Below, in pieces: positions 6,507 to 59,497 of a stretch of DNA of 64,000 nucleotides. The first letter of the stretch is position 1; each line of letters starts with the position of its first letter. The DNA lies in contig CAKUUX010000001.1 in the NCBI GenBank assembly GCA_934693165.1, positions 41,206 to 105,205 on the forward strand, given 5' to 3'. Under the pieces are notes generated by a model. It did not search any database and was not told the origin of the DNA. It saw only the letters and a list, made by a program, of their open reading frames with translations. Made by a program: the position numbers and the translations under genes. The DNA is from an uncultured Candidatus Melainabacteria bacterium. GTDB lineage: Bacteria > Cyanobacteriota > Vampirovibrionia > Gastranaerophilales > Gastranaerophilaceae.

Positions 6507-6743
6507 ATGTATCCAATAGAGCTATCTTTGAGTAGACCAAAAAATATTTTGACAGTAAGAGAAGAAGAAGTTTTGATAGAATTAATAAATGGTAAAAATA
6601 ACTATGAAATTGCAAATGATTTGTACATAAGCGTACATACTGTAAAATTTCATGTTGCATCTATCCTCCAAAAATTTGGTGTTTCAAGAAGGACAATGGT
6701 TATCTTGAAAGCTTTAGCAGATGGATGGATAGATATTATCTAA
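6507..6743 (+). CDS. Small LuxR/GerE-type HTH DNA-binding protein (stand-alone).
   Basis: LTVREEEVLIELINGKNNYEIANDLYISVHTVKFHVASILQKFGV matches the LuxR-family HTH signature. A strong SD (AAAGGAGG) lies 7 nt upstream of the ATG. Confidence 0.65.
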   Translation: MYPIELSLSRPKNILTVREEEVLIELINGKNNYEIANDLYISVHTVKFHVASILQKFGVSRRTMVILKALADGWIDII

Positions 6744-9700
6744 ACTTCTTCGGAATGTCTTACAAGTAAAGGAGTAGATTTTAAGTTATTTTTTTCAATT
6801 AACAAATCAGCTTGTTGTTTATAAGAAAGTGATTGTTCTTCATCTCCTTTTACAGAAAGAAGTTTAGAGATTAATAAGTTAAACATTATTGATAAAATTA
6901 CATTTGAATCAGGATTTTTATCTAATAATGAAATTGTATTTTTTGCAATTCCAAGACCAATATCAACACGGTTTTGTACAATTTTTAAATCGGCAATAAA
7001 ATGCCATGCTAAGATAGAAGCGTTTATTAATCCGTTTTGTGTGCTGATTTCTTTAACGTTTTGATAAATCTTTTGCGCCTTATCGTATTCACCAAGAATT
7101 TTGTATGAATATCCAATTAACAAGTCAGAAAGTAAATCTAGTTGTGTTAAATTGTTTTCTTTTGCTGACAATTTAGCTTGATATACATTTTTTGCAAACA
7201 GTTTAATATCAAAGTTGATATTTTCAAAAGCTTTCAACATACTATAAATGTATTTTGCAAAAATGTTTGAATCATCTAACATACTTGGTTCAACGTCTAA
7301 GTAGAAGTCTTCACCGTGAATGTATTTTTGCAAATAGATAAATAGTGAATAAGATTCAGGAATAACTTCTAATTTTTCTTTTGCTTTTTTGATAACAGGT
7401 GTAACATCTTCTAGTTGGAAGATTTTTGCCATGCAAACGTATCCAATAGTATCATAAATTGATGAGAATACTTGTTCTTGAGGCATTTTGTCAGAAATTA
7501 GGACAGAAATATTTTCTGGTGTAAACATTTCTAACAAGTCTTCTCCTAAAGATATACATTCTTTTAAGTTACCTGTATTAAAGAAAATATTTACCTTAAT
7601 CATTGATATCCAGAATAAAACATTGTTGAATTCTTTATCTGTTGGATTGAAGGATGATTTTGGTAATCTTGATAAAATTTTGTTTGCTAAAGTTATTGCC
7701 TGAGTGTAATTACCTGTTCTTAAGCAACATTGCAAGATTTTATTACACAAATTGATAACTTTTTTATCGTCCATTGCGTGTTCAATATTTTCTAAAACAA
7801 GTTTAGAGAAGTTATACAATTTTGTAGGAATGAATTTGTACAACATATTTGAAATGTTGTCATAAATTATCATTTTGTAGTTATTGATAGATTGTTGAGT
7901 TTCTTCGTCAGAATCTTGTTCCATCATTTTTAATAGTAAAATACTGCAATTTAAATATGCACTGAAATCACCTAACATCAATGCGACATTAGATAATATT
8001 TTCCAGAAGTTTTGAATTTTCTTTTTGTCTTCTAAAATATGGAAAACAGTTAAGTTTATTGGTAAAGGAACATTTTCATCAACAATATTATTTAGTAAAT
8101 AATTTGCAATGTTCAACTTATGACTTTTTTCCAACAGAACTTCTGATACTGTTTTTAAAAGGTTGTAGTTATTAAAATATACCACATTGTTTTCTAAATA
8201 GATGTAACCTTTTTCATCAAGAATACCAAGAGCATTTCCTAAGTCAGGTATATTCAAAGATTGAAGAGTTGAGATATCAATTCTTGGCCCTAAAGTTAGT
8301 AATAACATTAAAATACTGTAAGCATTTTTGTCATGAGATAAAAATCTAAATCTTGTTTCAACAAGTTTTTCAATTGTCGGTGGAAATATTACAGAAGTTT
8401 GTTTTACTAAAGCATATTTTCCATTTTTTAATTCGATAATGTTATTTTCTAGTAAATAATTTGTTGCATGATTTAGGTATAATGAGCTACCTTTTGCGTA
8501 TTGAGCAATTTTTTCCATATAGAAAGAATCTAAAATGTTTGCATAAATATCAACAAAAGGTGAAATTATTTTTTCAAAACTAGAACCTTTTACCATAATC
8601 TCTGTATATTGAGGATTTGATAATAAGAAATGAGAATTTTTATGTAGTGAGAAGTTTTCATCTGCAAAGAAAACTAAATTGATATTATATTTGTTAAAAT
8701 CTTTTAATATAAGTTGTAGGATTTCAAAAGAAGTTAAATCAATTTTTTCAAAATTTTCTACGTAAATTAAACAGTGTTCAAGAGAACTAAACAAGATTGC
8801 AAAAATATTGTACAAAGTATCTCTAATATCTTCTGGATTAACATCAGGAAGAGGTTTTAAATTAATTAAAGCTCTTACAACTCCTGCTTTATCAAGTTTG
8901 TCAAAAGTAGAAAAATTATTTTTTACAAAGTTTTTGGCAGAAATTGAAAAATTGAAAATAGAAGACAATAATTCATAGAAAAATCCATAAGGTCTGTTTA
9001 TAGTGTCCTCTGTGCAAGTTACTTTTACAATTTCTTCGCACAATTTATTGTGTTTTACCATAAGAGGAATTTCGTTAGATACAAGATAATATTTTTTATT
9101 CGTTTTTACAGAAATAATATTTTTAGATTGTTTTCCTAACAAAGTTAAAATAGTATTTTCTAATTCACCAGATTCAACGGTTACGAAGTTACAAACTTGT
9201 TCATCAAAGTTTAACTTTTTAATGTTATGGATAATTGTGTCGTCTTCTTCTAGTTCAATTTCTTGATTCAAATCCTCAAGAGAAAGCTGTTTTAATCTTT
9301 CTTTGATATAATCGTCTTTTGGTTCATCTTCTTCTTTTGGAATAGAAATATATTTTTGCAAATCAAGTTCAAAATACATTTCAAGTTTATCTTTTACAAG
9401 AACTGTTCCAAGCTGAGAAACACTAACTTTATCTCTCAAAACATCTGCTGTACTACTGTCAAGAAGTACTTGAAGTGCATTATGGAATTTGCTTTGGGAT
9501 GTATCTTTATACATCATTTTAATATTAAAACCTGATTTAAAGTCATGAAGTTTGGTATTAATATCTTTTTTCATTAATGTGAAATTACATCTTATAAGAG
9601 TATTATGTGTTCTGTGAAGTTTCACATTAAGTTTCATGATTGGTTTTGCAATTTCCAAAATGAATGAAATTGCTTTAAATACAGAAGCATCAAAGTTGCT

Positions 9701-10135
9701 TTCTTTATTAAATTTGATAATAAAAGCGTTATCAATAATTTGCCATTTTAAATCAATTTGAGAACAGAAACCAATTATTAGGTTGTATAAATTTGTTTTA
9801 AATTTTTTGTAAGCCTCTTTTGAATTAAAAATATCTTTTAAGTTTGCAATGTTTGGAAACTCAATAACGACGCATGCAAAATTAATGATAACAGATTCGT
9901 TAAGAGCGATACTCAATTGGGTATCCATGCCACAATTAGGACATTGTCCAATTTCTGTTAAATTAACTTTTCCACAGTTATGGCATTTGCTCAAAATTGT
10001 ATATCCACATTTTGAACAAATGCTTGTTCTGTTTAGAGTTTTGCAGACAGGACAAGTTAATTGTAAGACCTTCTTACAATTAGGGCATATTTTTGTATCT
10101 GGTGTTATTTCATGATTACATTTAGGACAATGCAT
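6740..10135 (-). CDS. Large multidomain protein (1131 aa) with an N-terminal triple zinc-ribbon, a central degenerate nucleotide-cyclase/STAND-like region, and a C-terminal TPR-like helical repeat region.
   Basis: Six CxxC pairs in the first 70 aa (CPKCN..CPNCK..CPVCK..CSKCG..CHNCG..CPNCG). FACVVIEF resembles the cyclase FADIVGFT motif with the catalytic Asp replaced by Cys. No canonical P-loop was seen. The C-terminus is rich in TPR-like helices. Confidence 0.5.
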   Translation of the reverse strand: MHCPKCNHEITPDTKICPNCKKVLQLTCPVCKTLNRTSICSKCGYTILSKCHNCGKVNLTEIGQCPNCGMDTQLSIALNESVIINFACVVIEFPNIANLKDIFNSKEAYKKFKTNLYNLIIGFCSQIDLKWQIIDNAFIIKFNKESNFDASVFKAISFILEIAKPIMKLNVKLHRTHNTLIRCNFTLMKKDINTKLHDFKSGFNIKMMYKDTSQSKFHNALQVLLDSSTADVLRDKVSVSQLGTVLVKDKLEMYFELDLQKYISIPKEEDEPKDDYIKERLKQLSLEDLNQEIELEEDDTIIHNIKKLNFDEQVCNFVTVESGELENTILTLLGKQSKNIISVKTNKKYYLVSNEIPLMVKHNKLCEEIVKVTCTEDTINRPYGFFYELLSSIFNFSISAKNFVKNNFSTFDKLDKAGVVRALINLKPLPDVNPEDIRDTLYNIFAILFSSLEHCLIYVENFEKIDLTSFEILQLILKDFNKYNINLVFFADENFSLHKNSHFLLSNPQYTEIMVKGSSFEKIISPFVDIYANILDSFYMEKIAQYAKGSSLYLNHATNYLLENNIIELKNGKYALVKQTSVIFPPTIEKLVETRFRFLSHDKNAYSILMLLLTLGPRIDISTLQSLNIPDLGNALGILDEKGYIYLENNVVYFNNYNLLKTVSEVLLEKSHKLNIANYLLNNIVDENVPLPINLTVFHILEDKKKIQNFWKILSNVALMLGDFSAYLNCSILLLKMMEQDSDEETQQSINNYKMIIYDNISNMLYKFIPTKLYNFSKLVLENIEHAMDDKKVINLCNKILQCCLRTGNYTQAITLANKILSRLPKSSFNPTDKEFNNVLFWISMIKVNIFFNTGNLKECISLGEDLLEMFTPENISVLISDKMPQEQVFSSIYDTIGYVCMAKIFQLEDVTPVIKKAKEKLEVIPESYSLFIYLQKYIHGEDFYLDVEPSMLDDSNIFAKYIYSMLKAFENINFDIKLFAKNVYQAKLSAKENNLTQLDLLSDLLIGYSYKILGEYDKAQKIYQNVKEISTQNGLINASILAWHFIADLKIVQNRVDIGLGIAKNTISLLDKNPDSNVILSIMFNLLISKLLSVKGDEEQSLSYKQQADLLIEKNNLKSTPLLVRHSEEV

Positions 10136-11118: not shown

Positions 11119-11126
11119 GAGAAGTG

Positions 11127-11825
11127 ATGTTTAGAAAATCTTTAAAAAAAGCAGATTATGTTGAAGAAAATATTTTTTGGATAACAATGTCAGACTTATT
11201 ATTAGGTTTGATGATTATTTTCTTGATTTTGTTTATCATGACAATGGTAGGATTTTCTCAAGCAAAATTTGCAGAAAAATCTGCGCAAGCTGAAATGGCA
11301 TCTGTTTTAGCTGATAAGTTTGAAGCTAACAAAATTAATGTGAATATTAATAAAATGTCAGGACAGATAGAAATTTCTGATTTAGAATTATTTGATTTGG
11401 GTAGTTACAAATTATCAAACAAAGGTAAAGCTTATTTAGATAAATTTTTCCCAATTTATATAGATACTATTTTTTCTAATCCAGAAGTTAGTAATAAAGT
11501 TGAAAATATTATTATAGAAGGTCATACTGATTCTCAAATGTTTAGAGGTTTGAAATCAGAAGATGAGCAATACGCCAAGAATTTAGAACTTTCTTCAATG
11601 CGTGCAACTGAAATTGCGAATTATGTTTTTAAAACAAATTATGATAAAAAGTACAGCAAAAAATTACGCAAAGTTTTAATTACAACTGGAAAAAGCAATA
11701 CTGAACCTGTTTTAACAAATAACAAAGAAGATTTTGATAAAAGCAGACGTGTAGAACTTGAAGTTCGCATGAAAGCTGGCGAAAATGTTCTTGAAAAAAT
11801 GTTAAATCAAAAAGGACTTTTATAA
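11127..11825 (+). CDS. MotB-like protein with an OmpA-type peptidoglycan-binding domain.
   Basis: A single transmembrane segment with the conserved channel Asp (WITMSDLLLGLMIIFL, like MotB WxxYADxMTxLxxFF). The C-terminus has an OmpA-like domain (IIIEGHTDS..NLELSSMRATEIANYV..SRRVELEV). An AGGAGAAG SD sits 5 nt before ATG 11127; the track's GTG at 11124 is probably not the start. Confidence 0.7.
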   Translation: MFRKSLKKADYVEENIFWITMSDLLLGLMIIFLILFIMTMVGFSQAKFAEKSAQAEMASVLADKFEANKINVNINKMSGQIEISDLELFDLGSYKLSNKGKAYLDKFFPIYIDTIFSNPEVSNKVENIIIEGHTDSQMFRGLKSEDEQYAKNLELSSMRATEIANYVFKTNYDKKYSKKLRKVLITTGKSNTEPVLTNNKEDFDKSRRVELEVRMKAGENVLEKMLNQKGLL

Positions 11826-21417: not shown

Positions 21418-21822
21418 TTACACATTTTCTTTGTATTCTGAATATTCTTCAGACTCTTCTTTCCATTTTTCTTCAGGAATACTGTAAGCATGATTCCAGA
21501 ATTTTTCAATCATGTAATTTTCACGTTCTTCTCTATGAAGGATATGAACAATTACATCACCGTAATCAACTAAATTCCAGCGATTTTTCATATCTCTTTC
21601 AACGCCTTTTGGAAGACGCTTGAAAAGAGTTTTAATTCTGTCTTGTAAAGTTTCTGTCATTGCTTTTACTTGAGTTGGAGAATCCCCAGATGCGATTACA
21701 AAAAAATCTGCAAGTGATGAAACCTTACTAATATCAAGAATAACAATGTTTTTAGCTAATCTATCGTCTAAAACTCTTGCTACAACAGAGGCAAATTTTT
21801 CAGTTGAAATTTCTTCTACCAT
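21418..21822 (-). CDS. rsfS: Ribosome silencing factor RsfS (Iojap family).
   Basis: NIVILDISKVSSLADFFVIASGDSPTQVKAM and DYGDVIVHIL are conserved RsfS motifs. It is stop/start adjacent with rpiB. Confidence 0.8.
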   Translation of the reverse strand: MVEEISTEKFASVVARVLDDRLAKNIVILDISKVSSLADFFVIASGDSPTQVKAMTETLQDRIKTLFKRLPKGVERDMKNRWNLVDYGDVIVHILHREERENYMIEKFWNHAYSIPEEKWKEESEEYSEYKENV

Positions 21823-22259
21823 TAGTCCTCCATCATATCAATTCTTCTTTGGTGACGGCCACCTTCGTATTCAGTTGTTAGCCAAATATCAACGATATCA
21901 AGCGCTAAGCCTGCGCCGATAACTCTTTCGCCCATGCAAAGGATGTTTGAATTATTGTGTTGACGAGTAGCTTTTGCTGAGAAAGTATCTCCACAAAGAG
22001 ATGCTCTAATACCTTTAACTTTGTTAGCAACGATTGAAACGCCAATACCTGTACCACAAATAATGATACCTTTTTCGTATTTGCCGTCAGCTACTGCGTG
22101 TGCAACTTTTTTAGCATAAATTGGATAATCAACAGAGTCTGATGTGTATGTTCCAACATCTTCTACTTCGTATCCTATTTCTTTTAGATGTTCTACAACT
22201 TTATTTTTTAAATTTAAACCACCATGGTCGCAACCAATAATAATTCTTTTTTCGCTCAT
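21822..22259 (-). CDS. rpiB: Ribose-5-phosphate isomerase B.
   Basis: RpiB/LacAB family motifs: IIIGCDHGG, IICGTGIGVSIVANKVKGIRAS, NSNILCMGERV. Confidence 0.85.
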   Translation of the reverse strand: MSEKRIIIGCDHGGLNLKNKVVEHLKEIGYEVEDVGTYTSDSVDYPIYAKKVAHAVADGKYEKGIIICGTGIGVSIVANKVKGIRASLCGDTFSAKATRQHNNSNILCMGERVIGAGLALDIVDIWLTTEYEGGRHQRRIDMMED

Positions 22260-22272
22260 TTTATTTACCTTT

Positions 22273-24222
22273 CTATTTGCATTTGCATTGATTTTTTTCT
22301 AAATCTTTTATACCTTTTTCCAAAGCGTCAACACGTTTTTCCAAAGTGTCCACTCTCTTTGATAATTGCTTATTTATTTCTATTAAAGCATGAATTCTAT
22401 CTTCTGCACGGTTCAAACGGATGATATAATCTTGAACTTTTTCTTTTAGATTTTCATACAACTTATCCAAATCTTTTATGGCATTGAACATTGTGAATAA
22501 GATGTTGTCTTGTCTAAGAACTAAATATCCGTCTTCGTTTTTTGTTACTGCATAAGGTAGAACTTTTTCTACGTCTTGCGCAATAAGACCAACTCTTTCA
22601 ACCTTTGGTTCTGTCTTGTATGTAAATTTGTACACATCAAGTTTTTTGATTTCGTTCAAACCTGTATTTGCAAATCCTTCAATATTTTTAAGTCTTTTAT
22701 CAGAAATTGTGTTGTAAGTTCCAGTGAATGTACCCCAAATTTCTGTAGAATAATTTGCACCCGTTCTTTGTCTAATATAGTTTGTGTAAGTCCAGTTTGA
22801 ATAAGCTGATGTACCTGCTGTTACTGTTGTTGTTGCGTTAACATAACTTCCTGTATGAAGATATGTGCCCACATTTGCATAAGTACCAACAGTCAAGTTT
22901 GTTGTTGTTTCTGTGTTGCCGTTAACTGTAAGTTTTGAACCTGTGTTAATTGTATTACCACTTCTTACATAAACATTACCTGCATGTAAGAAGATGTTTC
23001 CTGCTCCAGAACCAACAATTGTTTCTGCAGTGGTATTATTGAAAGTAAAACCAGCAGGTAAATTTGAATATCCAGAAGAAGTACCCAAACATGTTTTATT
23101 ACTACCAGAAACCGAACTGCAAGCTTTGTAACCAACGCCAGTATTATTAGAACCTGATTGAACTCCGTCTACTGCACCTTGACCAATACCAGTATTTGCA
23201 GTACCAGATGTTACGTTGTATCCTGCTTGGAAACCAACAAAAGAGTTATAACTACCCGTAGTATCCAAATATAGTGGTCGATACCCAACGCCAACATTGT
23301 ATGAACCTGCTCCATTTGTAATTAATGGTTCTGTGCCAATGGCTACGTTGTTATTTGCTGCTTGTTTGTTTTTAAGTGCTTGATAACCAATAGCGATATT
23401 TGATGCACCTGTAGTATTTGCAGATCCTGCATAATAACCAATAGCAATATTGTTTGCACCTGTTGTTGTTTCTGTTAAAGAAGAATTTCCTACTGCAACA
23501 TTGTTATAAGCCGTTGTATTTTTTATTAAGGCGTGGTAGCCAATCCCTACATTGTTTTCGCCAGAAGTGTTTGCAATTAATGTAGAGTTACCAAATGCAG
23601 TATTGTTAGAACCTGTAGTGTTTGCGTACAATGTACTTGAACCAATACCTATATTATCTCTACCTGAAGAAGTTGTTCTCAACGCATTTGAACCAATTGC
23701 GGTATTTGAAAAACCTGAAGTTAAAGAAGTTAAAGCTTGATGTCCGATACCAGTATTGTTGTTTCCAGTTACGCTACCAGTCATTACATTATATCCAGCA
23801 CCAAAGTTATCTGTACCAGTACTGTTTTGTACAGCATTCATTCCAAGACCCATGTTGTTATTATTTTTAAATCTAATATATCCAACAGTTGTGTTGTTAT
23901 ACATCATTCCGATTTGAGAGCGAGTATTACTGTTTGGTATATTGATATACAATCTTGCCAAACCTTGTGCATCAGGAGTTATAGAAGTTCCAAGCATTGC
24001 ACTTTGCGTTGAAGCAGGGGATGCAAACCAAATATCTGTATTGTTTCGGGCTAATTTCCAAAGTCCTCCACCACCAGAACCTGAGCCACCACCACTAGTT
24101 TTTTTGTTTGTGGTTACAGGCAAAATGGCTGCCATTACTAATGACAAGATTAAAAGTACAACTGTCATTTCTGCAATGGTGAAGGCTTTTCTATTTTTAA
24201 ATATTGAAAATAACTTATTCAT
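22273..24222 (-). CDS. Modular prepilin-like protein fused to a beta-helical repeat fibre and a C-terminal intramolecular-chaperone (peptidase S74, tail-fibre type) domain, with a terminal coiled coil.
   Basis: Class-III signal peptide (leader MNKLFSIFKNRKA, then FTIAEMTVVLLILSLVMAAIL with Glu at +5). Gly/Ser linker GGGSGSGGGG. At least 13 tandem ~17-aa repeats (NNxAxGxxAL..NTTGxxN). C-terminal ISDKRLKNIEGF...VYKFTYK...VGLIAQDVEKVLP matches the SDxRxKxNI autoproteolytic chaperone domain of endosialidase-type tail spikes. It ends in a heptad coiled coil (LEKRVDALEKGIKDLEK). Confidence 0.7.
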   Translation of the reverse strand: MNKLFSIFKNRKAFTIAEMTVVLLILSLVMAAILPVTTNKKTSGGGSGSGGGGLWKLARNNTDIWFASPASTQSAMLGTSITPDAQGLARLYINIPNSNTRSQIGMMYNNTTVGYIRFKNNNNMGLGMNAVQNSTGTDNFGAGYNVMTGSVTGNNNTGIGHQALTSLTSGFSNTAIGSNALRTTSSGRDNIGIGSSTLYANTTGSNNTAFGNSTLIANTSGENNVGIGYHALIKNTTAYNNVAVGNSSLTETTTGANNIAIGYYAGSANTTGASNIAIGYQALKNKQAANNNVAIGTEPLITNGAGSYNVGVGYRPLYLDTTGSYNSFVGFQAGYNVTSGTANTGIGQGAVDGVQSGSNNTGVGYKACSSVSGSNKTCLGTSSGYSNLPAGFTFNNTTAETIVGSGAGNIFLHAGNVYVRSGNTINTGSKLTVNGNTETTTNLTVGTYANVGTYLHTGSYVNATTTVTAGTSAYSNWTYTNYIRQRTGANYSTEIWGTFTGTYNTISDKRLKNIEGFANTGLNEIKKLDVYKFTYKTEPKVERVGLIAQDVEKVLPYAVTKNEDGYLVLRQDNILFTMFNAIKDLDKLYENLKEKVQDYIIRLNRAEDRIHALIEINKQLSKRVDTLEKRVDALEKGIKDLEKNQCKCK

Positions 24223-24605
24223 AACCTCGTTTATTATAACATATTATATAAATTTGTAGAATATTATAAAATTCACCTCTCCTCTATTTGTTATTACAAA
24301 TGTGGAGAAAGGTATAAAATAAAAAATTAATTTGTATGTTTAGGTAAAAATCTCAATAAAAATAACTTTCTAAACACCACTTGACAGTCAAACGCTGATA
24401 TATGGCTAGTTTTGGCATGTTGATTTTTGATTGTAAAATTTTGTAACAATTTTTTAGTGTAATTTTTACATGATTTCTTGACTATTTATATTATCGTAGT
24501 AACATTAAAATACATGTTCTTATAGACTATAACAGAAATGTTAAGTTTTATAAATTTTTTAGTACGTACACAATATGAATAATACAAAGAAGCGAGGTTT
24601 ATAGA

Positions 24606-27987: not shown

Positions 27988-29697
27988 ATGTCAACAAGTA
28001 TTGATTACTTTGATTATATACAGATTAGTATCGCCTCACCTGAAAGAATTTTAAAATGGTCTTACGGTGAAGTTACTAAACCTGAAACAATCAACTACCG
28101 TACTTTAAAACCAGAAAGAGATGGTCTTTTCTGCGAAAGAATTTTTGGACCTACAAAAGACTGGGAATGTTATTGCGGAAAATATAAAAGAGTTCGTCAT
28201 AAAGGTATCATTTGCGAACGTTGTGGTGTAGAAGTTACTGACTCAAAAGTACGTCGTCACAGAATGGGACACATTAAATTAGCTGCCCCTGTTTCACATA
28301 TTTGGTTCCTAAAAGGTATTCCATCATATATGGGTCTTTTACTTGATATGTCTTTAAAAGATTTAGAACAAGTAATTTACTTCAACAATTACGTTGTAAT
28401 TGATGGTGGAGATAGCGAATTTAGAAAATATCAACTTTTATCTGAAGATGAATACGAAGATTACGTATTAGAACACGAAGAAACAACTCTTAAAGTTGGT
28501 ATCGGTGCAGAGGCTATTAAAGAATTAATCGGTGAAATCGATATTAAAGCTCTTGCAGAAGAAATTAGAACAGAATTAAACAATGGTGTAACTTCTGTTC
28601 AAAAGAAATCAAAATTAATTAAGAGATTGAGATTATTAGATTCATTAATCTCAAGCGAAACAGATCCAACTTGGATGATTATGGATGTAATTCCTGTAAC
28701 TCCACCAGACTTAAGACCAATGGTTCAATTAGATGGTGGTCGTTTCGCTACATCTGACTTAAATGATTTATACAGACGTGTAATCAACAGAAACAACCGT
28801 TTACAAAGATTATTAGAAATGGGCGCTCCTGAAATTATCGTAAGAAACGAAAAACGTATGTTACAAGAAGCAGTAGACGCTTTAATTGATAACGGTAGAC
28901 GTGGTAGAACAGTTGTTGGTCCAAACAACAGACCATTGAAATCATTATCAAACATTATCGAAGGTAAACAAGGTCGTTTCCGTCAAAACTTATTAGGTAA
29001 ACGTGTTGACTACTCAGGTCGTTCAGTTATCGTAGTAGGTCCATCATTGAAATTAAATCAATGTGGTTTACCAAAAGAAATGGCAATTGAATTATTTAAA
29101 CCATTTGTTGTAAACAAATTAATCGAACGTGGTTATGTTCAAAATATTAAATCAGCTAAGAAGAGAATTGAACGTTCAGAACCTATCGTATGGGATATCT
29201 TAGAAGAGGTAATCGATGGACACCCAGTATTACTAAACCGTGCCCCAACTCTTCACAGATTAGGTATTCAAGCATTCGAACCAAAATTGGTTGAAGGACG
29301 TGCAATCCAATTACACCCTCTTGTATGTACAGCATTCAACGCTGACTTCGATGGTGACCAAATGGCTGTCCATGTTCCTTTATCAATTGAAGCTCAAACT
29401 GAAGCAAGAATGTTGATGTTAGCATCTAATAACATCTTAGCTCCTGCTACAGGTAAACCAATCATTACACCATCTCAAGATATGGTTATGGGCATGTACT
29501 ACTTGACTCTTGTTAAAGATGAAAGTAAGGAAGCTCAACACTATTTCTATAACTTCCAAGATGCAATTTCTGCTCTTGAAGTAGGTGTAATCAAGCTTCA
29601 CGATAAAATCATTGTTCGTGATGAACATGGTAAACGTTTTGAAACTACAGCTGGAAGAATTATATTCAACGAAGCTGTTAGAAAGGCACTTGTATAG
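27988..29697 (+). CDS. rpoC1: DNA-directed RNA polymerase gamma subunit, the N-terminal half of beta-prime (cyanobacterial-type split).
   Basis: Contains the zinc finger ([20 protein letters not shown]) and the catalytic NADFDGDQM motif, then terminates after about 569 aa. SD is AAAGGAGA. Confidence 0.95.
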
Positions 29698-29721: not shown

Positions 29722-32700
29722 ATGGAAAATATGTACACACAAACAAAAAATGCTCCAGAATTTATTAATAAACAGATGGATAAAAAAGCTTTAAACAAGC
29801 TATTATCTCAAATTTATCTTGAATACGGCGGAGCTAAAGCAGCAGAACTTGCTAATACATTAAAAAATTTGGGTTACCATTACGCAACTAAATCAGGCGT
29901 AACAATTTCAATTTCTGACTTGTCAGTTCCAGAATCTAAAAAAGATTTATTGAACGAAGCAGAAGCAGAAATTGAAAAATCTACAACTCGTTATTTAAAA
30001 GGTGAAATTACAGAAGTAGAAAGATATACAAAGGTTATCGACACTTGGTCTGAAACAACAGCTAAATTAACAGCTCAAGTAGTTGAAAACTTTGATAGAT
30101 TGAACCCAGTTTATATGATGGCATTCTCAGGTGCCAGAGGTAACTTATCACAAGTATCACAATTAGTTGGTATGCGTGGATTGATGGCAGATGCGCAAGG
30201 TCAAATCATCGACTTACCTATTAAAGCAAACTTTAAAGAAGGTCTATCTTGTACAGAATACATCATTTCATCATACGGTGCTCGTAAAGGTCTTGTAGAT
30301 ACAGCGTTAAAAACAGCTGACTCTGGTTACTTAACAAGACGTCTAGTTGACGTTGCACAAGATGTTATCATTCGTGATGCTGATTGCCATGGCACAAAAC
30401 ATATCATGTTAAAGAGTATTACTGATGGTGGTTCTGTTATCGTTCCTTTAATCGATAGATTATTAGGTAGAACAATTGCACAAGACATTGTTGATGAAGA
30501 TGGTACAGTTCTTGTAACAGCAAACACAACAATGGGCCGTGAAGATATTGAAAAAATTCGTCACTTAAACTTAGAAGAACTTGCAGTTCGTTCAGGTTTA
30601 ACTTGTGAATTAGAATATGGTGTTTGCCAAAAATGTTATGGTTGGGCAATGACAACTCAAAAACTTGTTGATGTTGGTGAAGCAATCGGTATTATCGCAG
30701 CTCAATCAATTGGTGAACCTGGTACACAGTTAACAATGAGAACATTCCACACAGGTGGTGTATTCAAAGGTTCTGGTGCTATGAAAACTGTTGAAGCTAA
30801 AGATTCTGGTAAAATCTCTTGCAAATTAAAAACTAGAGAAGTAAGAACTCGTCACGGGGATGTTGTAAAACTTTCTATGTACGAAGTTGAAGCCGAAATC
30901 AAAGGTGCTAAGAGAACAACTAAATACCACATTCCTGCTGGTGCAACAATCTTCTTTACAGATGGTCAAGAAGTTGAAAAGGGATTCAAACTTGCTGAAT
31001 ACGAACCAGTATCACAAGGGGATGGTTCTCGTTTAACAGAAAAAGCTACAAAAGATATTACATCTGACTTATCAGGTGAAGTTATTTTCAAAGACTTTAT
31101 TGCTGATGAAAAGAAAGATAGACAAGGTAACATTTCAAGAACAGCTAACAAACAAGGTATTGTTTGGGTTCTTGGTGGTGATGTTTATAACTTACCAAGT
31201 GGTTCAAAACTTTTAGTTAAAGACGGTCAAAAAATGAAAGAGGGCGAAAAGCTTGCTGAAACATTGACTGTTTGTGAACACGGTGGTGAAGTTCGTATTG
31301 GTCAAGACCTTGTTATTGAAGAAACAAAATTTGAAGGTCATAAAATCAAGAAGATTGTTCAAGGTAAAGAATTAACAATCGTTATTGCATCATTAATGCC
31401 ATCAAATGCTACATTTGAACAAACTAAGAAAGAACAACTTTGGACAGTTGAAGCAACTGGTGAAAAATATATTGTTAAATCTCCAGTTGATACTCCAGTT
31501 GAAAATGGTATGATTATTGCCGAATTAATCAATGGTGACTGCTCAGTTGAATCTTCTGGTGAAATCAAATATATCGACGTTGAAGTTGATGAAAATCAAA
31601 TAATTACAAAATCAGGTGATGTTGTATTTATTCCTGAAGAAGTTCACCAATTAAGCAAAGATTCTGCTTTAAAAATGGTTGAATCAGGAAGTTATGTAAC
31701 AGCTGGTACAGAAATCGTTAAAGACGTATATTGTCACTTAGACGGTATCGTTGAAATTAAAGAATACAATGATGTAATTCACGAAGCTGTAATCAGACCT
31801 GGTCAAATTCATACATTATCAAGTGTTTCTGAATTAAAAGTTGAAGAAAACGAAGTTATCAAAAAAGGAACAGTTATTGCAGACGGTATTAAAGCAAAAG
31901 AAACTTCTATCGTTACAGTAATGGATTCTGAAGATGATTTCGCTGATATCGATGATTTAGATGAAGAACTTGATACATCATTGAGTTTGGATGAAGAAAA
32001 CATTACAGACAAACCAATTCAAATTTTGGTAAGACCTGTAAAAGTTATCAAAATTAAACCTCAAGAAGTTTCAATTAAATTTGACAAAACTGATGATTTA
32101 ATTGACATCGTTCCTGTAACACAATTACAATATAAAGACGGTGCTAGAGTTAGAAATCTTGACGGTGCTACATTAACAAGAACAAGTTTAGTTCTTCAAA
32201 TGCAAGGTTACTTATCACACTTAAAAGGTATGGTAGAACTTGATAAGAACAATAACTTGAAGATTGTTGTATTAGAAACATTAATTGTTCGTCGTGAAAT
32301 TGAAGGTAATTCTAAATTGAATTCTTCAATGCAAACTGAATTGTTAGTTAACCACGGTGACGTTATTGAACCAAAAACTCCAGTTGCAAAAACACAAGTA
32401 CTAGTAATCAATGATGGTGTTGCTTCAATTAAGAAAGCTGAAGAAGACGCAAGAAGATTATTATTAGTTTGTGAAAACTTTGAATCAAAAGTTGCAATTA
32501 AAACAAAACCTCTTGTAAAAGCTGGAGATATGGTTAAATTAGACGATTTACTATCAGAAGGTGGCGACAGATCACCAGTTTCTGGTCAAGTAGTTTCTGT
32601 ATCAAAATCAGAAGTAGTCGTAAGAGAAGGTAGACCATACTTAATCAGCCCAGGTACTCAGTTACTAGTTGAAGAAAATTCATTAGTACTACGTGGTGAT

Positions 32701-33567
32701 ATGTTGGCTACATTGTTATATGAAAGACAAAAAACAGGTGATATCGTTCAAGGTCTTCCAAGAGTTGAAGAATTACTTGAAGGTAGAAAACCTAAAGATA
32801 GTGCAATTCTTGCTGAGTTTGACGGTAAAGCTATTATTGAAACAGATGATGATATGCCAAGATTGTATTTAGAAACTGAAGACGGTTCAAGAACTGAAAT
32901 CAAATTCGCAATTGATGCAAATATTATCGTTTCAAACGGTGAAAAGATTAAAAAAGGTCAACCATTAACAAGTGGTTCACTAAATCCTCATGACGTTATG
33001 AGATTATGTGGTCCAGAAGTTGCACAACAATATCTAGTAGATGAAGTACAACGTGTATATCGTTCACAAGGTGTAGAAATTGCTGATAAACACATTGAAA
33101 TCATCGTTCGTCAAATGACTAAGAAAGTTAAAGTTATCGAACCAGGTGATACAAAACTTCTTCCAGGCGAACTTGTTGAAATGCAAACATTTGAAAAAGA
33201 AAACAAGGAAGCAGTTGCGAACGGTTTACAAGCAGCAACTTGTGAATACATGTTATTAGGTATTACAAAAGCTTCATTGAATACTGAATCATTTATTTCA
33301 GCAGCTTCATTCCAAGAAACAACAAGAATTCTTACTGAAGCAGCTGTAGATGGTAAGAAAGACTTATTGAGAGGTTTGAAAGAAAACGTTATCATTGGTC
33401 GTCTAATCCCTGCAGGTACAGGTTACCATCACTTGACTCATGCAAATGAGGAAAAGGATAAAGAAGCACAAAGAAGAGCAGCAGCACGTAACCAAGCTAG
33501 AAAACCTTCTGCAATCTTAGAAGAAATTGAAGGTATGTTTGGCGCTCCTGACTTCACTATTGAGTAA
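29722..33567 (+). CDS. rpoC2: DNA-directed RNA polymerase beta-prime C-terminal portion with a large lineage-specific insertion.
   Basis: 1281 aa. It begins at the conserved G region ([16 protein letters not shown]), and has a long insertion between the trigger-loop segments. Its own SD is AAGGAT. Confidence 0.95.
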
Positions 33568-33590
33568 TTCGATAGTTAATTGACAAAAAA

Positions 33591-33619
33591 GCAAGTTTGT
33601 TTCAAACTTGCTTTTTTTG
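33591..33619 (+). terminator. Rho-independent terminator after rpoC2.
   Basis: GCAAGTTTG-ttt-CAAACTTGC followed by TTTTTTTG. It lies inside the 5' end of the track ORF 33580..35403, so the true start of that ORF must be downstream. Confidence 0.8.
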
Positions 33620-33642
33620 TTTATAGTTGGTATTTTTATTTT

Positions 33643-35403
33643 ATGTTTAATCAAAATGTTTTATCTTTAAAAAAATGTAATCTTAACTTAGCTGACAAGT
33701 TGATTGGGCTTTCTTTTGACAAAGCAAGAGAAACTATTGATATTGCAAAGTCAGAGAGTGATGATGTTATTTTTATAAAAAATAATATTCCTCTTGAAAG
33801 TACAGTTAATCCTATAGAAGAGGCGTTTTATGAAGTACAATCTTCTATAAAATCTTCTATGGGGGCGTTTGATTTTATAATTATTTTTGGCTTAGGTGTT
33901 GGGTACATGCTAGATTATATTTTTGAAAAATATAATAGTAAAATTATTTTGGTTGAACCTGACATAAATGTTATGAGAACAGCTTTTGAGATGGTTGATT
34001 ATTCAAAATATCTTGAAAGTGGTCGTCTTTTTATGACTTGTAATTATGAAGATGTTTATAAATATCTTTCTAAAAAATATATTATTAATGATAAGGTCGA
34101 AATTGTATTTTTAAAACAATATATAAGTTTGTATGCAAATGATATAAAGTCTTTTACAGAAAAAATATATGAAACTTGTGCAGTGAAAATTTCTGATATA
34201 AACACAATTAAAAAAAATTCAGAAGCATGGGTGTCTTCAAGTATCAGATTTGTAAAAAATAGTGGTCAAACTTATCCAGTAAGTCTTTTAGACAAAAAAT
34301 TTGAGGGCAGAACGGCACTTGTGCTTGGTGCTGGCCCAAGTTTGAAGGATAACATTGACTATATTAAAAAATATTCAGATAGATTAGTTATTTTTGCAAT
34401 AAATAGAACTATAAATTTTTTACTAGAGTATGGTATTATTCCAAATTTTGCTATCTTTACTGATACTAAACATATTAAGAATACATTTAATTTTAATGCC
34501 CCTCAATTAAAAGATATAAACTTTGTTGTAGATATAAAAGCAGATGCTGAACTTTATAACGTTCTTAAAAAGCGTTGTTTTATATATTATCCTAATAATT
34601 TTGATTTAGCAAAAATTTTGGCTGAAAAGAACTCTTATATTCATCTGTACCAGACTGCTGGAACATCAACTTTTTGTGCTTTGATTTGCGCAAAAGAATT
34701 GGGTTGCAAAAATGTTATTTTATCAGGTGTTGATTTAGCTTTTAAGAACGATACTCCGTATTGCTCTGATTCTTATGCAGTTAATCTAAAAGTTGATAAG
34801 GACAAAGTTACAATTGGAAGTATGGAAAAAAAGATTGTTTTCGTTAAATCTGTTACAGGAGAACTTGTTAAAACAAGAGAAGATTATGAAATTTTTATTA
34901 AACAATTCCAAAATTTCTTTAAAGAAAATCCTCAGATAAAAGCTTATAATACATCAAGTTTTGGTGCTCAGATAGATGGTACTACAAATTTTAATTTTGA
35001 AGAAATTATGTCAAAAATTGAAATTCCTTTTGATAATAAATCTATAGAAGATATTATAAATGATACGTTATATAGAAGTGATTATAACCCTGTAGAACTT
35101 AAAAAAGAAGCTAGAAACATTGTGAGAAATGAAGAAGAATTAAACTTTGAAATAAGAGGCTCTATCAAAACTCTTTTAAATAGAGATGTTAACGATGAAG
35201 TTTTTTACGTTACTTCTTTTACTATTTTAGATAAAATTTCTAAAACTATATTTTTATCTCAACTTCTTCAATTTGAACTTTTAAATTGTACAAAATTAAT
35301 TTCACAAGAAAATACTGTTCAAAAAAGAGCAAGTTTTGAATTATTTTTAGAAGAAACTTTGAAAAAAGTAGACTTTTTAAATGTTAGACTTGCTGAGATT
35401 TAA
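33643..35403 (+). CDS. Motility-associated factor (Maf) family protein, DUF115-containing, a putative flagellin nonulosonic-acid glycosyltransferase.
   Basis: About 587 aa. It has the DUF115/MptE-like core (FDFIIIFGLGVGYML..IILVEPD; ALVLGAGPSLKDNIDYIKKYSDRLVIFAINRT; FAIFTDT). The start is reassigned to ATG 33643, downstream of the rpoC2 terminator. Confidence 0.65.
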   Translation: MFNQNVLSLKKCNLNLADKLIGLSFDKARETIDIAKSESDDVIFIKNNIPLESTVNPIEEAFYEVQSSIKSSMGAFDFIIIFGLGVGYMLDYIFEKYNSKIILVEPDINVMRTAFEMVDYSKYLESGRLFMTCNYEDVYKYLSKKYIINDKVEIVFLKQYISLYANDIKSFTEKIYETCAVKISDINTIKKNSEAWVSSSIRFVKNSGQTYPVSLLDKKFEGRTALVLGAGPSLKDNIDYIKKYSDRLVIFAINRTINFLLEYGIIPNFAIFTDTKHIKNTFNFNAPQLKDINFVVDIKADAELYNVLKKRCFIYYPNNFDLAKILAEKNSYIHLYQTAGTSTFCALICAKELGCKNVILSGVDLAFKNDTPYCSDSYAVNLKVDKDKVTIGSMEKKIVFVKSVTGELVKTREDYEIFIKQFQNFFKENPQIKAYNTSSFGAQIDGTTNFNFEEIMSKIEIPFDNKSIEDIINDTLYRSDYNPVELKKEARNIVRNEEELNFEIRGSIKTLLNRDVNDEVFYVTSFTILDKISKTIFLSQLLQFELLNCTKLISQENTVQKRASFELFLEETLKKVDFLNVRLAEI

Positions 35404-43350: not shown

Positions 43351-44805
43351 TTATTCTGAAATGTCTTCGCTGTTTTCAAGAAGTTGGTTAAGTTGTTTTG
43401 CAGAGATTCTTGGTTGGTTAATTGTTGCATTACCACCACAACAACCACTTTCACAGCTCATAACTTCTACAATATTGCAATTTGGACATTCGTTTTTTGT
43501 AGCATATTGTTTAAGTTCCTTGATTGTAGCTTTGTTTAAACCATTAATAATACATGGTTTAGCATCAGGTGCTAAGAATTGTACTGCTTTTGCAACACCA
43601 CCTGATACACCAAAGTTTCTACCTTGTTTAGAACTTGTTGTTTCAAATTGTGTTTCTTCGCAATTTAATACGTCGATTTGTCGACCAATGAATAATGCGC
43701 CAAGTTCTTCGTAGCTCATTACAAAGTCAACGTTGTCATTTGCTTTACCTTCTGAACGTTTTGCAACACATGGGCTTACAAATACTGCAATTGTTTCAGG
43801 TTCTGCTTTTTTAACAAGTTCTGCTGTATAGTAAAGAGGTGTTTTTGTTGTTGAAACAAAAGGTTTAATTTCTGGTAAATGCTTTGCAACAAGGTTGTTG
43901 TAAGCTGCACAACAAGAAGTTGTCATAAAGCTTGCGCCTTCTTCCATTCTTTCTTTAAATTCTGCAGCTTCATTTTTTGTTGTTATGTCTGCCCCTTGTG
44001 CTACTTCAATAACATCATCAAATCCAGCTTTTACTATAGCTGTTTTTAATTGATAAAGTGTCCCTGGGAATTGTCCAACGATTGATGGTGCAATCATTGC
44101 TACAACTTTTTTATCAGATTTAATTGCTTTTAAGATATCAATTAATTGACTCTTTTCGTGTACTGCGCCAAATGGGCATGCTGCAATACATTTACCACAG
44201 CTAATACATTTTTCAAAATCGATACTTGCAAAACCAGTTTCGTCTTTTGAAATAGCACCAACAGGACATGCTGCTTCACATGGAACAGTTGTTTGTACTA
44301 TTGCACTATATGGGCATGCATTCATACACATTTTACATTTTTTGCATTTTGTTGTATCGATGTGAGATTTGCCGTCTACGATTGAAATAGCACCAAACTT
44401 ACATGTTTTTTCGCAAGGTCTTGCAACACAGCCTTGGCATAAATCTGTTACGTGAATTTGACTAGGTACACAACCTTTGCAAGCTGCTTGTAATACTGTC
44501 AAATTTCTATTATCTAATTCTGTTCTTTTTAAAGCTTCTTTTGCATAAGTGTGAAGTGATTTTCTTTCATCATCTTCTTCAATTTGGAAACCAAGTCCTG
44601 CAATTGCTCTATCTTTAAGAATTGCTCTTTCTTTATAGATACAACATCTATAAGGAACTTCAGCTCCTTTTGGTCTCATATCATAGGGGATTAGTCTTGT
44701 ATTTTCTGCAAAATCTTCTGAAAAGAATGCTTTTACAAGTCTAATTAAAATTTCTTTTTTTAAATGTATTGATTGTGCGTTATTATTCATTTTCCTGTCT
44801 TCCAT
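43351..44805 (-). CDS. [FeFe]-hydrogenase catalytic-subunit-like protein (HydA-like) with N-terminal ferredoxin-type FeS clusters and divergent H-cluster motifs.
   Basis: Several CxxCxxCxxxCP ferredoxin motifs (CKKCKMCMNACP, CISCGKCIAACP). The H-domain motifs are L1 TSCCAAY (canonical TSCCPxW), L2 SPCVAKRSE (canonical MPCxxKxxE), and L3 EVMSCESGCCGG (canonical ExMxCxxGCxxGG). Confidence 0.75.
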   Translation of the reverse strand: MEDRKMNNNAQSIHLKKEILIRLVKAFFSEDFAENTRLIPYDMRPKGAEVPYRCCIYKERAILKDRAIAGLGFQIEEDDERKSLHTYAKEALKRTELDNRNLTVLQAACKGCVPSQIHVTDLCQGCVARPCEKTCKFGAISIVDGKSHIDTTKCKKCKMCMNACPYSAIVQTTVPCEAACPVGAISKDETGFASIDFEKCISCGKCIAACPFGAVHEKSQLIDILKAIKSDKKVVAMIAPSIVGQFPGTLYQLKTAIVKAGFDDVIEVAQGADITTKNEAAEFKERMEEGASFMTTSCCAAYNNLVAKHLPEIKPFVSTTKTPLYYTAELVKKAEPETIAVFVSPCVAKRSEGKANDNVDFVMSYEELGALFIGRQIDVLNCEETQFETTSSKQGRNFGVSGGVAKAVQFLAPDAKPCIINGLNKATIKELKQYATKNECPNCNIVEVMSCESGCCGGNATINQPRISAKQLNQLLENSEDISE

Positions 44806-44835
44806 ACCTTAAAATTTACATACAAAATTATACTA

Positions 44836-45093
44836 TTATTTATTTAAAATTTCATTAATTTTTTCTAAAACTTTTTCAGTTGTAGCTTCAGAAATTATTT
44901 CGTCATTTACTCGTACATAAGGAGCTTTTGAATATTCTGTATTTTTTGAACACATTTCTAAGCATGTACTTCCGTTTATTTCAACTTTATCTCCATATTT
45001 TCTTGGTACGATGTCTATTAATTCTTGCAAATGAGAGCCACCCATTACAAAACACGTTGTTCCTAAGCATACGTCAACTTTAATCTTTTCCAT
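44836..45093 (-). CDS. Thioredoxin-like [2Fe-2S] ferredoxin (NuoE/HydC-like small protein).
   Basis: 85 aa. Cys pattern CLGTTC ... CLEMC (Cx4C...Cx3C) is typical of the thioredoxin-like 2Fe-2S family. Confidence 0.6.
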   Translation of the reverse strand: MEKIKVDVCLGTTCFVMGGSHLQELIDIVPRKYGDKVEINGSTCLEMCSKNTEYSKAPYVRVNDEIISEATTEKVLEKINEILNK

Positions 45094-45102
45094 ATTTTCT
45101 CC

Positions 45103-48223: not shown

Positions 48224-48847
48224 TTAAACCTCATCATCATTGTTGGTGAATTGTAAAAAGTTTCCTATTAAGTTTTCGTTCCAAACTTTTATGCCTTCAG
48301 GAACATCTAAAACGCTTGGTGTAAAGTTCCAAATGTATTTTATTCCAGAATTTGCAAGGTATAATGCTGTGTCATTCGCAAATTCTCTAGGAACTGTTAA
48401 AATTGCAATGTTTACTTTTAATCTTTCTGCTAAATTTGGTAATTTTGAAACATGGAAAATTTCTTTTCCTTTTATTGAATTACCAACTTTTAATGGGTCA
48501 TTATCAAATAGGGCTAGTATATTTAAACCATAATTTTCAAAATTGTCGTATTTTGCAAGTGCCATACCCAAGTTACCTGCACCAACAATAAATACGTCTT
48601 TTACTTTTTTGAAACCTAATGTGTGTTCTATAGAATCTTTTAATTCTTTTACAGAGTATCCAACTTTGCATTTACCAACGTTATTTAAGAATTTTATATC
48701 TTTTCTAACTTGAGAATCATCAACATTAAGTCTTGAACCGATTTGAGGACTAGAAATGAATTCAATGCCTTTTTCATTGTACTCAACTAAAATACAATGA
48801 TAAAGAGTTAATCTATTTATTACTTTGTCTGTTAATTTTGTTTTCAT
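48224..48847 (-). CDS. rex: Redox-sensing transcriptional repressor Rex.
   Basis: N-terminal winged helix (VINRLTLYHCIL), Rossmann NADH-binding fold (VFIVGAGNLGMALA), and a C-terminal domain-swap helix. It is the first gene of the hydrogenase operon. Confidence 0.85.
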   Translation of the reverse strand: MKTKLTDKVINRLTLYHCILVEYNEKGIEFISSPQIGSRLNVDDSQVRKDIKFLNNVGKCKVGYSVKELKDSIEHTLGFKKVKDVFIVGAGNLGMALAKYDNFENYGLNILALFDNDPLKVGNSIKGKEIFHVSKLPNLAERLKVNIAILTVPREFANDTALYLANSGIKYIWNFTPSVLDVPEGIKVWNENLIGNFLQFTNNDDEV

Positions 48848-51640: not shown

Positions 51641-51761
51641 TTTTTTATTTCTCCTTTTTTTAGTGGGTAATCGTGATTTATTTCCTGATAGCAACAGTAT
51701 AAAAAATATTAAGTGTTTTTGTCAACCCTTAATCGTTTTCCAGTATTTACAAGCCTTAACA

Positions 51762-59444: not shown

Positions 59445-59497
59445 AATTCGGCTATTTATATTATTAATTTAATTTGAAAAAATATTATAATTTAGGT

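Follow-up and report, generated by a model that had tools for sequence, protein, structure and literature searches.

A prepilin-type anchor, a phage-type fibre and an S74 chaperone joined in a candidate variable surface adhesin of gut Melainabacteria

What does a gene that begins like a type IV pilin and continues like a phage tail fibre do among the core genes of a gut bacterium? The question is raised by a gene lying between rpoB and rpiB in a 64,000-nucleotide stretch of DNA (hereafter the window; positions 41,206 to 105,205 of contig CAKUUX010000001.1, assembly GCA_934693165.1) from an uncultured Candidatus Melainabacteria bacterium of the Gastranaerophilales. The original prediction, made from the letters alone, described its product as a chimera of a prepilin-like N-terminus, tail-fibre-like repeats and an S74 domain, and this architecture is real and recurs in hundreds of homologs. 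On the strength of domain matches, profile comparisons and family alignments, we hold with moderate confidence that the protein is a Sec-exported, prepilin-peptidase-processed homotrimeric fibre that is shown by the type IV filament machinery, likeliest as a tip trimer. It probably acts as a variable surface adhesin. The gene belongs to a repertoire of multiple paralogs in Gastranaerophilales.

The protein appears to combine three parts of differing origin: a prepilin signal with the alpha1-N helix of a type IV pilin, a lineage-specific neck that carries a shaft and tip of phage-fibre type, and an S74 chaperone. At the N-terminus, the junction of leader and helix (KNRKA/FTIAEM, the slash marking the junction) follows the class III signal peptide rule of Gly or Ala at -1, Phe at +1 and Glu at +5, and no Sec-type signal peptide was found there. 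The class III signal, Glu+5 and hydrophobic helix on which the original prediction rested belong to a family-invariant motif: F14, T15, A17, E18 (Glu+5), P35 (Pro+22) and T38 do not vary in alignments of 19 and 42 diverged members, and the residue at -1 is Ala in 81, Gly in 43 and Ser in 1 of 125 representatives. When the family's N-terminal profile was compared with the PDB, the best matches were all type IV pilins or pseudopilins, in register for the leader, F1, E5 and P22; they include Geobacter PilA-N (9egp, E 8e-4, the best), PilA (9laa), Streptococcus sanguinis PilE1 (8pfb), GspG and MshA. The ComGC, ComGE and GspG models also match the N-terminus weakly. An AlphaFold2 (AF2) model of the first 177 residues, built from 42 sequences, has one confident helix at residues 16-39 (pLDDT, the predicted local distance difference test score, up to 94) followed by a disordered linker, with the neck at low confidence. 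The linker runs from NKKT into SGGGSGSGGGG at residues 43-53, the Gly/Ser stretch already recognized in the original prediction. That prediction overlooked the conserved neck that follows at residues 54-125. A Foldseek search of the PDB with the AF2 model of the neck returned no significant match and no pilin (best E 0.85); given the low confidence of the model, a divergent pilin mini-domain in the neck is possible.

The repeats that follow have the predicted period of 17 residues but span 255 residues (126-380) rather than about 230. Their BLOSUM autocorrelation reaches 1.53 at a lag of 17 and 1.32 at 34 and is at most -0.21 at every other lag. The G and N columns of the repeat are conserved, and the shaft ends in a conserved loop, GSNKTCxG, that holds Cys368 and Cys378, a pair that fits an extracytoplasmic location. 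The virion-structural and tail-spike families PHROG 6002, 23837 and 4636 match the repeats at E 1e-40 to 3e-32, and in a tblastn comparison the shaft shares 33-40% identity (E down to 2e-31) with tail-fibre genes from phages of Pelagibacter, Roseobacter, Synechococcus and Prochlorococcus. None of these tblastn phage matches begins before residue 85, and none spans 80% of the protein. Beyond the shaft, residues 381-506 are rich in Thr, Gly and Asn, with strands about every six residues (VGTYAN VGTYLH TGSYVN...), and this tip would be the mature C-terminus once the S74 domain is cut off. The repeats lie outside every Pfam model, and comparison with the sequences of solved structures gave them no match. 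The phage fibre structure 8jov, a full-length profile match, was considered as a template for the shaft and set aside, as the match rests essentially on the chaperone domain; thus no solved structure covers the 17-residue repeat shaft. QdtC, a left-handed beta-helix protein and the sole phmmer match in the PDB (E 0.002), reflects the hexapeptide-like periodicity of the tip and not homology.

The C-terminal domain is, as judged from profile matches and invariant residues, a genuine S74 intramolecular chaperone. The hidden Markov model search proposed with the original prediction places PF13884 on residues 507-559 with 47.1 bits against a cut-off of 22 (E 3e-12). S507, D508, L511 and K512 are invariant, with the Ser, Asp and Lys shared by 21 full-length and 17 C-terminal family sequences. 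The family's C-terminal profile matches the solved chaperone domains of MYRF (7dc3, 1.1e-10), a phage tail fibre (8jov, 2.4e-8), the distal subunit of the S16 long tail fibre (6f45, 2.8e-5), the T5 L-shaped fibre (8hqz, 1.2e-4) and the GA-1 neck appendage (3gud, 5.8e-3). The coiled coil that had been placed after the S74 domain does exist as an AF2 helix at residues 571-645; this 75-residue helix is best read as part of the chaperone domain rather than as an extra module. The last residues of the protein, QCKCK (645-649; 22276-22290, minus strand), are kept in most close orthologs and absent from distant members, and ortholog P0006 ends in CKCKCKQ and P0010 in QQCK. This end could be a metal or disulfide staple that closes the chaperone coiled coil.

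Conservation is distributed along the protein in the manner of a receptor-binding protein. Mean identity to ten orthologs is 0.96 in the anchor helix, 0.83 in the neck, 0.81 in the S74 core and 0.78 in the C-terminal helix, and falls to 0.50 in the repeats and 0.56 in the tip, where it drops as low as 0.30-0.38 in farther orthologs. A cassette of the shaft, at residues ~160-320, is only 30-55% identical to the otherwise near-identical orthologs P0001, P0002 and P0003 in blocks of 20 residues. P0001, for instance, has 95-100% identity elsewhere and 35-55% in residues ~160-260, and a similar cassette is seen against P0002 and P0003. This pattern suggests recombination, between repeats or between paralogs, or diversifying selection on an exposed surface.

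The family to which the protein belongs is large. Full-length orthologs share 53-86% identity with it, and precomputed N_methyl (PF07963) and S74 matches are on record for many remoter homologs with 27-36% identity. A word-index search with the N-terminal 130 residues was uninformative, returning only two fragments, and an exhaustive profile search with the N-terminal module was used instead; it gave 1,610 cluster representatives at E <=1e-3, 665 at <=1e-10 and 131 at <=1e-30. One match, P0210 (5,799 residues with cadherin-like repeats), proved on reading to be a compositional false positive. At least 94 of the top 100 representatives of 330 residues or more end in S74 (91 by regular expression and 3 by eye), and most of the others look truncated. 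Members range from 330 to 980 residues and differ in length mainly in the shaft. One protein, P0156 (596 residues), has the prepilin and neck N-terminus and an end that looks cupin-type rather than S74; it may represent an alternative cargo, or an assembly or frameshift artefact.

In species-representative genomes we confirmed 205 loci. The 80 best of them are spread over about 54 genomes, nearly all of which bear the label Gastranaerophilales, Melainabacteria or 'Cyanobacteria bacterium'; a single genome has as many as six paralog loci. The genomes nearest to the window are metagenome-assembled genomes of Gastranaerophilales and Melainabacteria from rumen and gut, and the closest by N-terminus is 'Cyanobacteria bacterium UBA791', with 94% identity over the N-terminal 119 residues. 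A few family contigs are filed under unrelated taxa: L009 (CAVCIU010000001.1, 'Methanobacteriaceae archaeon'), L016 ('Muribaculaceae'), and L027 and L078 ('Clostridium sp. CAG:967'). On L009 the fibre gene lies between rpoB and rpiB just as it does in the window, with 90% identity over the N-terminal 119 residues, and all four contigs look like misbinned or misnamed Melainabacteria sequences.

The placement of the gene among core genes and outside a prophage, another element of the original prediction, stands. Its flanks are rpiB, rsfS and rpoB, and no phage gene was found anywhere in the window. The order rpoB / fibre gene / rpiB-rsfS-TPR is retained in an ortholog of 57% identity. A Pfam census of 88 genes flanking 44 family loci found housekeeping families only (YajQ, a helix-turn-helix regulator, tRNA synthetases, MurG, IspD and others), and a distant paralog type holds a conserved housekeeping position of its own. 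Within about 6 kb, each of the 80 family loci has a single prepilin motif and no second one. A search for the N-terminal module in 2.9 million viral contigs (IMG/VR) gave no match. The synteny, the housekeeping flanks and the absence from viral contigs together rule out a prophage origin of the present gene, and the fusion of the N-terminal module with S74 is old, maintained and no accident. The repeat and S74 module is also found elsewhere: in many proteins of Bacteroidota, joined there to a Sec signal peptide and another conserved N-terminal domain, PF26696 (homologs P0036, P0048, P0052, P0114 and others), and in phage-like proteins starting MASTYVNDLRLEE. Because of this wider occurrence, it seems that a fibre-and-chaperone cassette has been joined to several lineage-specific anchors.

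What the analysis establishes is the architecture, the invariance of the processing and catalytic motifs, the distribution of the family, its chromosomal setting and its pattern of variability; from these we infer a mechanism of four steps, our confidence falling in that order. The hydrophobic N-terminal helix would insert into the inner membrane while the remainder of the protein passes to the periplasm. There, if the domain behaves as characterised S74 domains do, three C-terminal chaperones would associate and template the trimeric shaft from its C-terminal end, after which Ser507 and Lys512 would sever the chain before Ser507 and so set the chaperone free. The invariant processing site suggests that the 13-residue leader is taken off after Ala13 by a prepilin peptidase, which would also methylate Phe14. 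Leader removal and trimerisation would leave a mature fibre whose base is formed by three pilin alpha1-N helices. The fibre may then be lifted from the membrane by type IV filament machinery, most plausibly as a trimer that primes or tips the pilus, in the manner of CofB and TcpB, so that the variable shaft and tip become exposed and could bind a gut ligand. We would extend this tentatively, and with less confidence than we have in display by type IV machinery as such, to the idea that gut Melainabacteria possess interchangeable homotrimeric pilus tips resembling receptor-binding proteins, in which a bare alpha1-N trio nucleates or caps the filament and the disposable S74 domain controls folding in the periplasm. 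Published work lends support to the four-step mechanism: pilA, pilB, pilC, pilT and pilD in Ca. Gastranaerophilus termiticola (PMC5877343), homotrimeric tip-located minor pilins that initiate pilus assembly in CofB and TcpB (PMC8179133), and a cellular S74 fibre repertoire with proven self-cleavage in the MAT fibres of Bdellovibrio (PMC10769870).

Several results weigh against display by the type IV machinery. The N-terminus falls marginally under the Pfam gathering cut-off for N_methyl (21.0 bits against 21.2, E 2.4e-4), and TIGR02532 is likewise under threshold for this protein (14.2 against 16.3). Neither AF2 nor Foldseek detected an alpha1-C continuation or globular pilin domain, so the protein is pilin-anchored rather than the full modular pilin of the original prediction, and with only alpha1-N and a disordered Gly-rich linker its ordinary incorporation into the body of a filament is unlikely. 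The window holds no pilus machinery gene and no other prepilin gene, none of the 80 family loci has a pilus gene within about 6 kb, and no PilB/PilT-type Walker A motif was found in 1 Mb of DNA scanned. A tip initiator would not usually be present in as many as six paralogs per genome. The AF2 monomer models are of low confidence (mean pLDDT 59 and 69) and have no significant fold match; a Foldseek search of the PDB with the full monomer of mean pLDDT 59 yielded no E-value under 0.3, its matches being left-handed beta-helix enzymes of no significance. In addition, trimer formation, cleavage, export and exposure at the surface are all predictions.

In a rival account, the pilin-like helix is an inner-membrane anchor only, with its leader removed or not, and the protein is an envelope fibre that never enters a pilus; the trimer would stay in the periplasm or envelope, or leave by another route, independently of type IV machinery. 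The lack of a detected globular pilin domain favours this account, as do the family genes that are never linked to pilus genes or other pilins and the many paralogs dispersed among housekeeping genes, and by a rough estimate some fifteen repeats together with neck and tip would come to about the width of the periplasm. Yet the whole prepilin signature (A or G at -1, F1, E5, P22) shows strict conservation, exactly at the canonical positions, in over 100 diverged representatives. A plain anchor is disfavoured because a simple anchor has no need of that signature and because a buried Glu is unfavourable unless it is used. The hypervariable shaft and tip also suggest exposure to outside ligands or selection, and a length range of 330-980 residues argues against a fixed periplasmic span. 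We therefore regard the envelope fibre as somewhat unlikely, though it is the rival that we take most seriously. A YadA-like trimeric autotransporter adhesin, delivered by type V secretion, is the least probable of the readings considered and hardly credible. JGI does label some distant homologs 'trimeric autotransporter adhesin', there is an NxAIG-like motif in the repeats, and P0113 and P0117 have a precomputed YadA_head match, faint in P0117, but no YadA_anchor or beta-barrel translocator was found with Pfam at E up to 1, there is no Sec-type signal peptide, and the C-terminus consists of S74 and a helix. The autotransporter reading is thus contradicted by domain content; of the likeness to YadA heads and tail fibres seen in the original prediction, the homology to phage tail fibres holds, whereas YadA heads are seen weakly, as faint Pfam matches in some homologs only.

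Two further readings concern the phage-like part of the protein, and we consider both very improbable. Strong PHROG and tblastn matches of residues ~85-600 to phage tail fibres and virion proteins, and the NCBI label 'tail fiber domain-containing protein' on homologs, would suit a tail-fibre gene of a phage, prophage or tailocin, remnant or recent, that resembles a prepilin by chance. Such a gene is hard to reconcile with a window that lacks phage-type genes, with housekeeping neighbours at 44 family loci, with rpoB/rpiB/rsfS synteny that is kept in orthologs down to 57% identity, and with a G+C content (0.35) close to that of the adjoining blocks (0.31-0.33). The N-terminal module, moreover, was not found in IMG/VR, residues 1-85 lie outside every phage match, and the prepilin motif is invariant in the family. 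In the other reading, which is the published one for proteins that combine N_methyl and S74, the S74 domain is functional cargo of a pilus-borne protease that cuts external substrates. Raynaud et al. 2021 list the IPR012902-IPR030392 combination and propose 'peptidase activity' as a new function of type IV filaments (PMC8179133). But in the S74 proteins considered here the domain acts as a chaperone that cuts its own chain once and is then released, as in Bdellovibrio Bd3182, which self-cleaves at S782 and whose S782A mutant does not (Caulton et al. 2024, PMC10769870). The family profile matches chaperone domains of this kind, those of MYRF and phage fibres, and the domain sits at the extreme C-terminus, directly after a shaft of phage-fibre type with a Ser at the junction. 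Once cut, it would no longer be joined to the pilin anchor.

If the protein is a trimeric fibre shown by type IV machinery, its relation to known systems deserves a closer look. The original prediction suggested a new class of modular pilin; the architecture of N_methyl (IPR012902) followed by Peptidase S74 (IPR030392) is in fact already catalogued by Raynaud et al. 2021 (PMC8179133), and homologs already carry the NCBI names 'tail fiber domain-containing' or 'prepilin-type N-terminal cleavage/methylation domain-containing'. The fibre protein resembles the modular type IV pilins of that work in having an N-terminal prepilin motif followed by a non-pilin module that ends in S74. Of their definition of a modular pilin, it has the N_methyl-type motif and the S74 module, while the 'pilin module via short linker' is there by half. 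The characterised modular pilins PilB and PilC of S. sanguinis keep a complete pilin module, whereas the fibre protein has only alpha1-N and a Gly-rich linker. In the same paper S74 is regarded as peptidase cargo, and tail fibres, trimers and a chaperone function go unmentioned (PMC8179133); we predict that the true cargo is the phage-type shaft and tip and that S74 is discarded. For a pilin cut down to its helix there is a precedent in Geobacter PilA-N ('geopilin', essentially an alpha1 helix), the best PDB match noted above, although PilA-N pairs with a separate globular PilA-C and the helix of the fibre protein is fused to a phage-type fibre.

The best mechanistic precedent for a trimeric fibre on a pilus is CofB of the CFA/III pilus of enterotoxigenic Escherichia coli (ETEC) and TcpB of the TCP pilus of Vibrio cholerae, in which three pilin N-termini are joined to a C-terminally trimerised, beta-rich extension that juts out from the pilus tip. 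CofB and TcpB differ in having a globular pilin domain, in lacking S74 and phage-fibre repeats, and in being encoded in a type IVb pilus operon, and we found no sequence relationship between them and the fibre protein. The S74 subgroup of the MAT fibres of Bdellovibrio bacteriovorus, which includes Bd3182, is similar in another respect: these are chromosomally encoded, multi-paralog, trimeric phage-like fibres with variable distal parts, a conserved cell-proximal N-terminal module and a self-cleaving C-terminal S74 with an SDxxxK motif, and 13 of the 21 MAT paralogs have S74 (PMC10769870). MAT proteins use a Sec signal peptide and a beta-rich N-terminal domain of about 130 residues whose anchor partner is unknown, in contrast to the prepilin signal, alpha1-N and 72-residue neck of the fibre family. 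Their hosts differ as well, one a predatory Bdellovibrio and the other a fermentative gut melainabacterium. Membership of the fibre protein in the MAT family is unlikely; compared with MAT as described, the likeness is functional and architectural. Phage fibres and tailspikes with a chaperone (K1F endosialidase, T5 pb1, the S16 long tail fibre and the GA-1 neck appendage) and the eukaryotic MYRF are related through S74 profile homology and share the Ser/Lys motif. Phage fibres begin with a virion-attachment domain, whereas the fibre protein has a prepilin-type anchor and is encoded by a cellular, syntenic gene embedded in the core genome.

In the literature searched, no paper joins 'intramolecular chaperone' with 'prepilin' or 'Peptidase_S74' with 'pilin'; the family is large, catalogued and never studied. 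What is new here, on our reading, is that the members of the S74-pilin class are trimeric fibres of phage type, with a disposable chaperone and a pilin reduced to alpha1-N, and that these form a scattered, hypervariable core-genome repertoire in Gastranaerophilales. If this is true, a phage receptor-binding module with its self-cleaving chaperone has moved from the virion baseplate to a type IV filament, with the 25-residue alpha1-N as its only adaptor. It would be the first pilin reduced to alpha1-N that serves as a universal adaptor for trimeric cargo, in effect a type IV pilus armed with phage tail fibres, and the whole class of 'S74 peptidase pilins' would be fibre adhesins with a throw-away folding aid and not proteases. 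The anchor-linker-neck design also points to an easy route for presenting trimeric cargo on pili.

The Gastranaerophilales, common in the guts of humans and herbivores, have not been cultured, and we know of nothing reported on the attachment of these bacteria to anything. Because its shafts and tips are hypervariable, and because it counts about 1,600 representatives and as many as six paralogs in a genome, the family is the obvious candidate for their main variable surface adhesin. The link to predation raised in the original prediction finds no support, the lineage being the fermentative gut Gastranaerophilales and not Vampirovibrio.

Table 1. Features of the fibre gene and its product, in coordinates of the window
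Feature	Coordinates	Strand	Basis
Whole gene, fibre protein with prepilin anchor and C-terminal S74 chaperone	22273..24222	-	649-residue open reading frame, ATG start; domain matches; full-length orthologs
Two overlapping sigma-70-like promoter matches (TTTATA-16-TATAAT, TCTACA-16-TGnTATAAT)	24233..24270	-	Consensus match only, in AT-rich DNA
Ribosome-binding site GAGG	24225..24228	-	Read from sequence; 4 nt 5' of ATG
Residues 1-13, short basic leader MNKLFSIFKNRKA, Ala at -1	24184..24222	-	Sequence and family alignment
Residues 14-38, pilin-type alpha1-N helix FTIAEMTVVLLILSLVMAAILPVTT	24109..24183	-	F1, E5, S14, P22 in mature numbering
Residues 39-53, basic stretch then Gly/Ser linker NKKTSGGGSGSGGGG	24064..24108	-	AF2 pLDDT <50 for residues 42-55
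Residues 54-125, family-specific conserved neck (LWKLARNNTDIWF...RLYINIP...), predicted beta-rich	23848..24063	-	W55 and G78 invariant; ortholog identity 83%
Residues 126-380, phage-tail-fibre-like shaft, fifteen 17-residue repeats (G-x-x-A-L-x-x-N-T-T-G-x-x-N-x-A-I)	23083..23847	-	Period 17; PHROG, tblastn
Residues ~160-320, hypervariable cassette in shaft	23263..23745	-	Identities of 20-residue blocks vs P0001, P0002, P0003
Residues 381-506, post-repeat region and beta-rich distal tip	22705..23082	-	AF2 strand ladder, residues 430-485
Residues 507-559, Peptidase_S74 core, predicted cleavage/catalytic Ser507 and Lys512 (SDKRLK)	22546..22704	-	PF13884, invariant residues
Residues 571-645, long C-terminal helix/coiled coil of chaperone domain	22288..22512	-	AF2 helix; coiled-coil Pfam noise matches

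The fibre gene (Table 1) has a G+C content of 0.35, against 0.31-0.33 in the adjoining 2-kb blocks and about 30% in the window. The ATG of rpiB (21822-22259) lies only 13 nt past its stop codon, and rsfS, a TPR protein gene and further genes follow on the same strand. A sequence scan found no terminator-like site between the fibre gene and rpiB/rsfS. Given the short gap, the shared strand and the absence of such a site, the fibre gene and the rpiB-rsfS housekeeping genes are probably co-transcribed as one transcript. The rpoB gene is divergent from the fibre gene and starts at 24606.

Directly after rpoB, rpoC is present as two genes (27988-29697 and 29722-33567, plus strand; products of 569 and 1,281 residues), and RNA polymerase Rpb1 domains were found at the syntenic ortholog locus. 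A split rpoC is the cyanobacterial arrangement, and together with the G+C content of about 30% and the fermentative genes described below, among them those for the [FeFe]-hydrogenase-like proteins, AdhE and the Rex-like regulator, it places the window in the non-photosynthetic Melainabacteria. Directly 3' of rpoC2 is a gene for a 607-residue MptE-like protein (PF01973/DUF115; 33580-35403, plus strand), in a position that is kept in an ortholog locus (L001 1-581). The MptE-like/DUF115 domain occurs in Maf-type flagellin glycosyltransferases, and it is conceivable, as pure speculation, that this protein glycosylates the Ser/Thr/Asn-rich fibre.

Elsewhere in the window, two [FeFe]-hydrogenase-like genes (484 and 574 residues, the latter with a PF04060 Fe-S domain) stand around a SpoIIE/PP2C-type phosphatase, and a Rex-like redox regulator and AdhE adjoin them (43351-47984, 48224-48847 and 48941-51694, all on the minus strand); the region looks like a sensory-hydrogenase and redox-control cluster. 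Two neighbouring XerC/XerD-like tyrosine recombinases with SAM-like N-terminal domains (58521-59444 and 59474-60370, plus strand) have no other mobile-element genes near them. The sole Pfam match of a 1,131-residue protein (6740-10135, minus strand) is an N-terminal double zinc ribbon. An SLH-domain protein (52824-54221, plus strand) and an OmpA-family protein (11124-11825, plus strand) fit a diderm envelope, which bears on the route of the fibre across the outer membrane.

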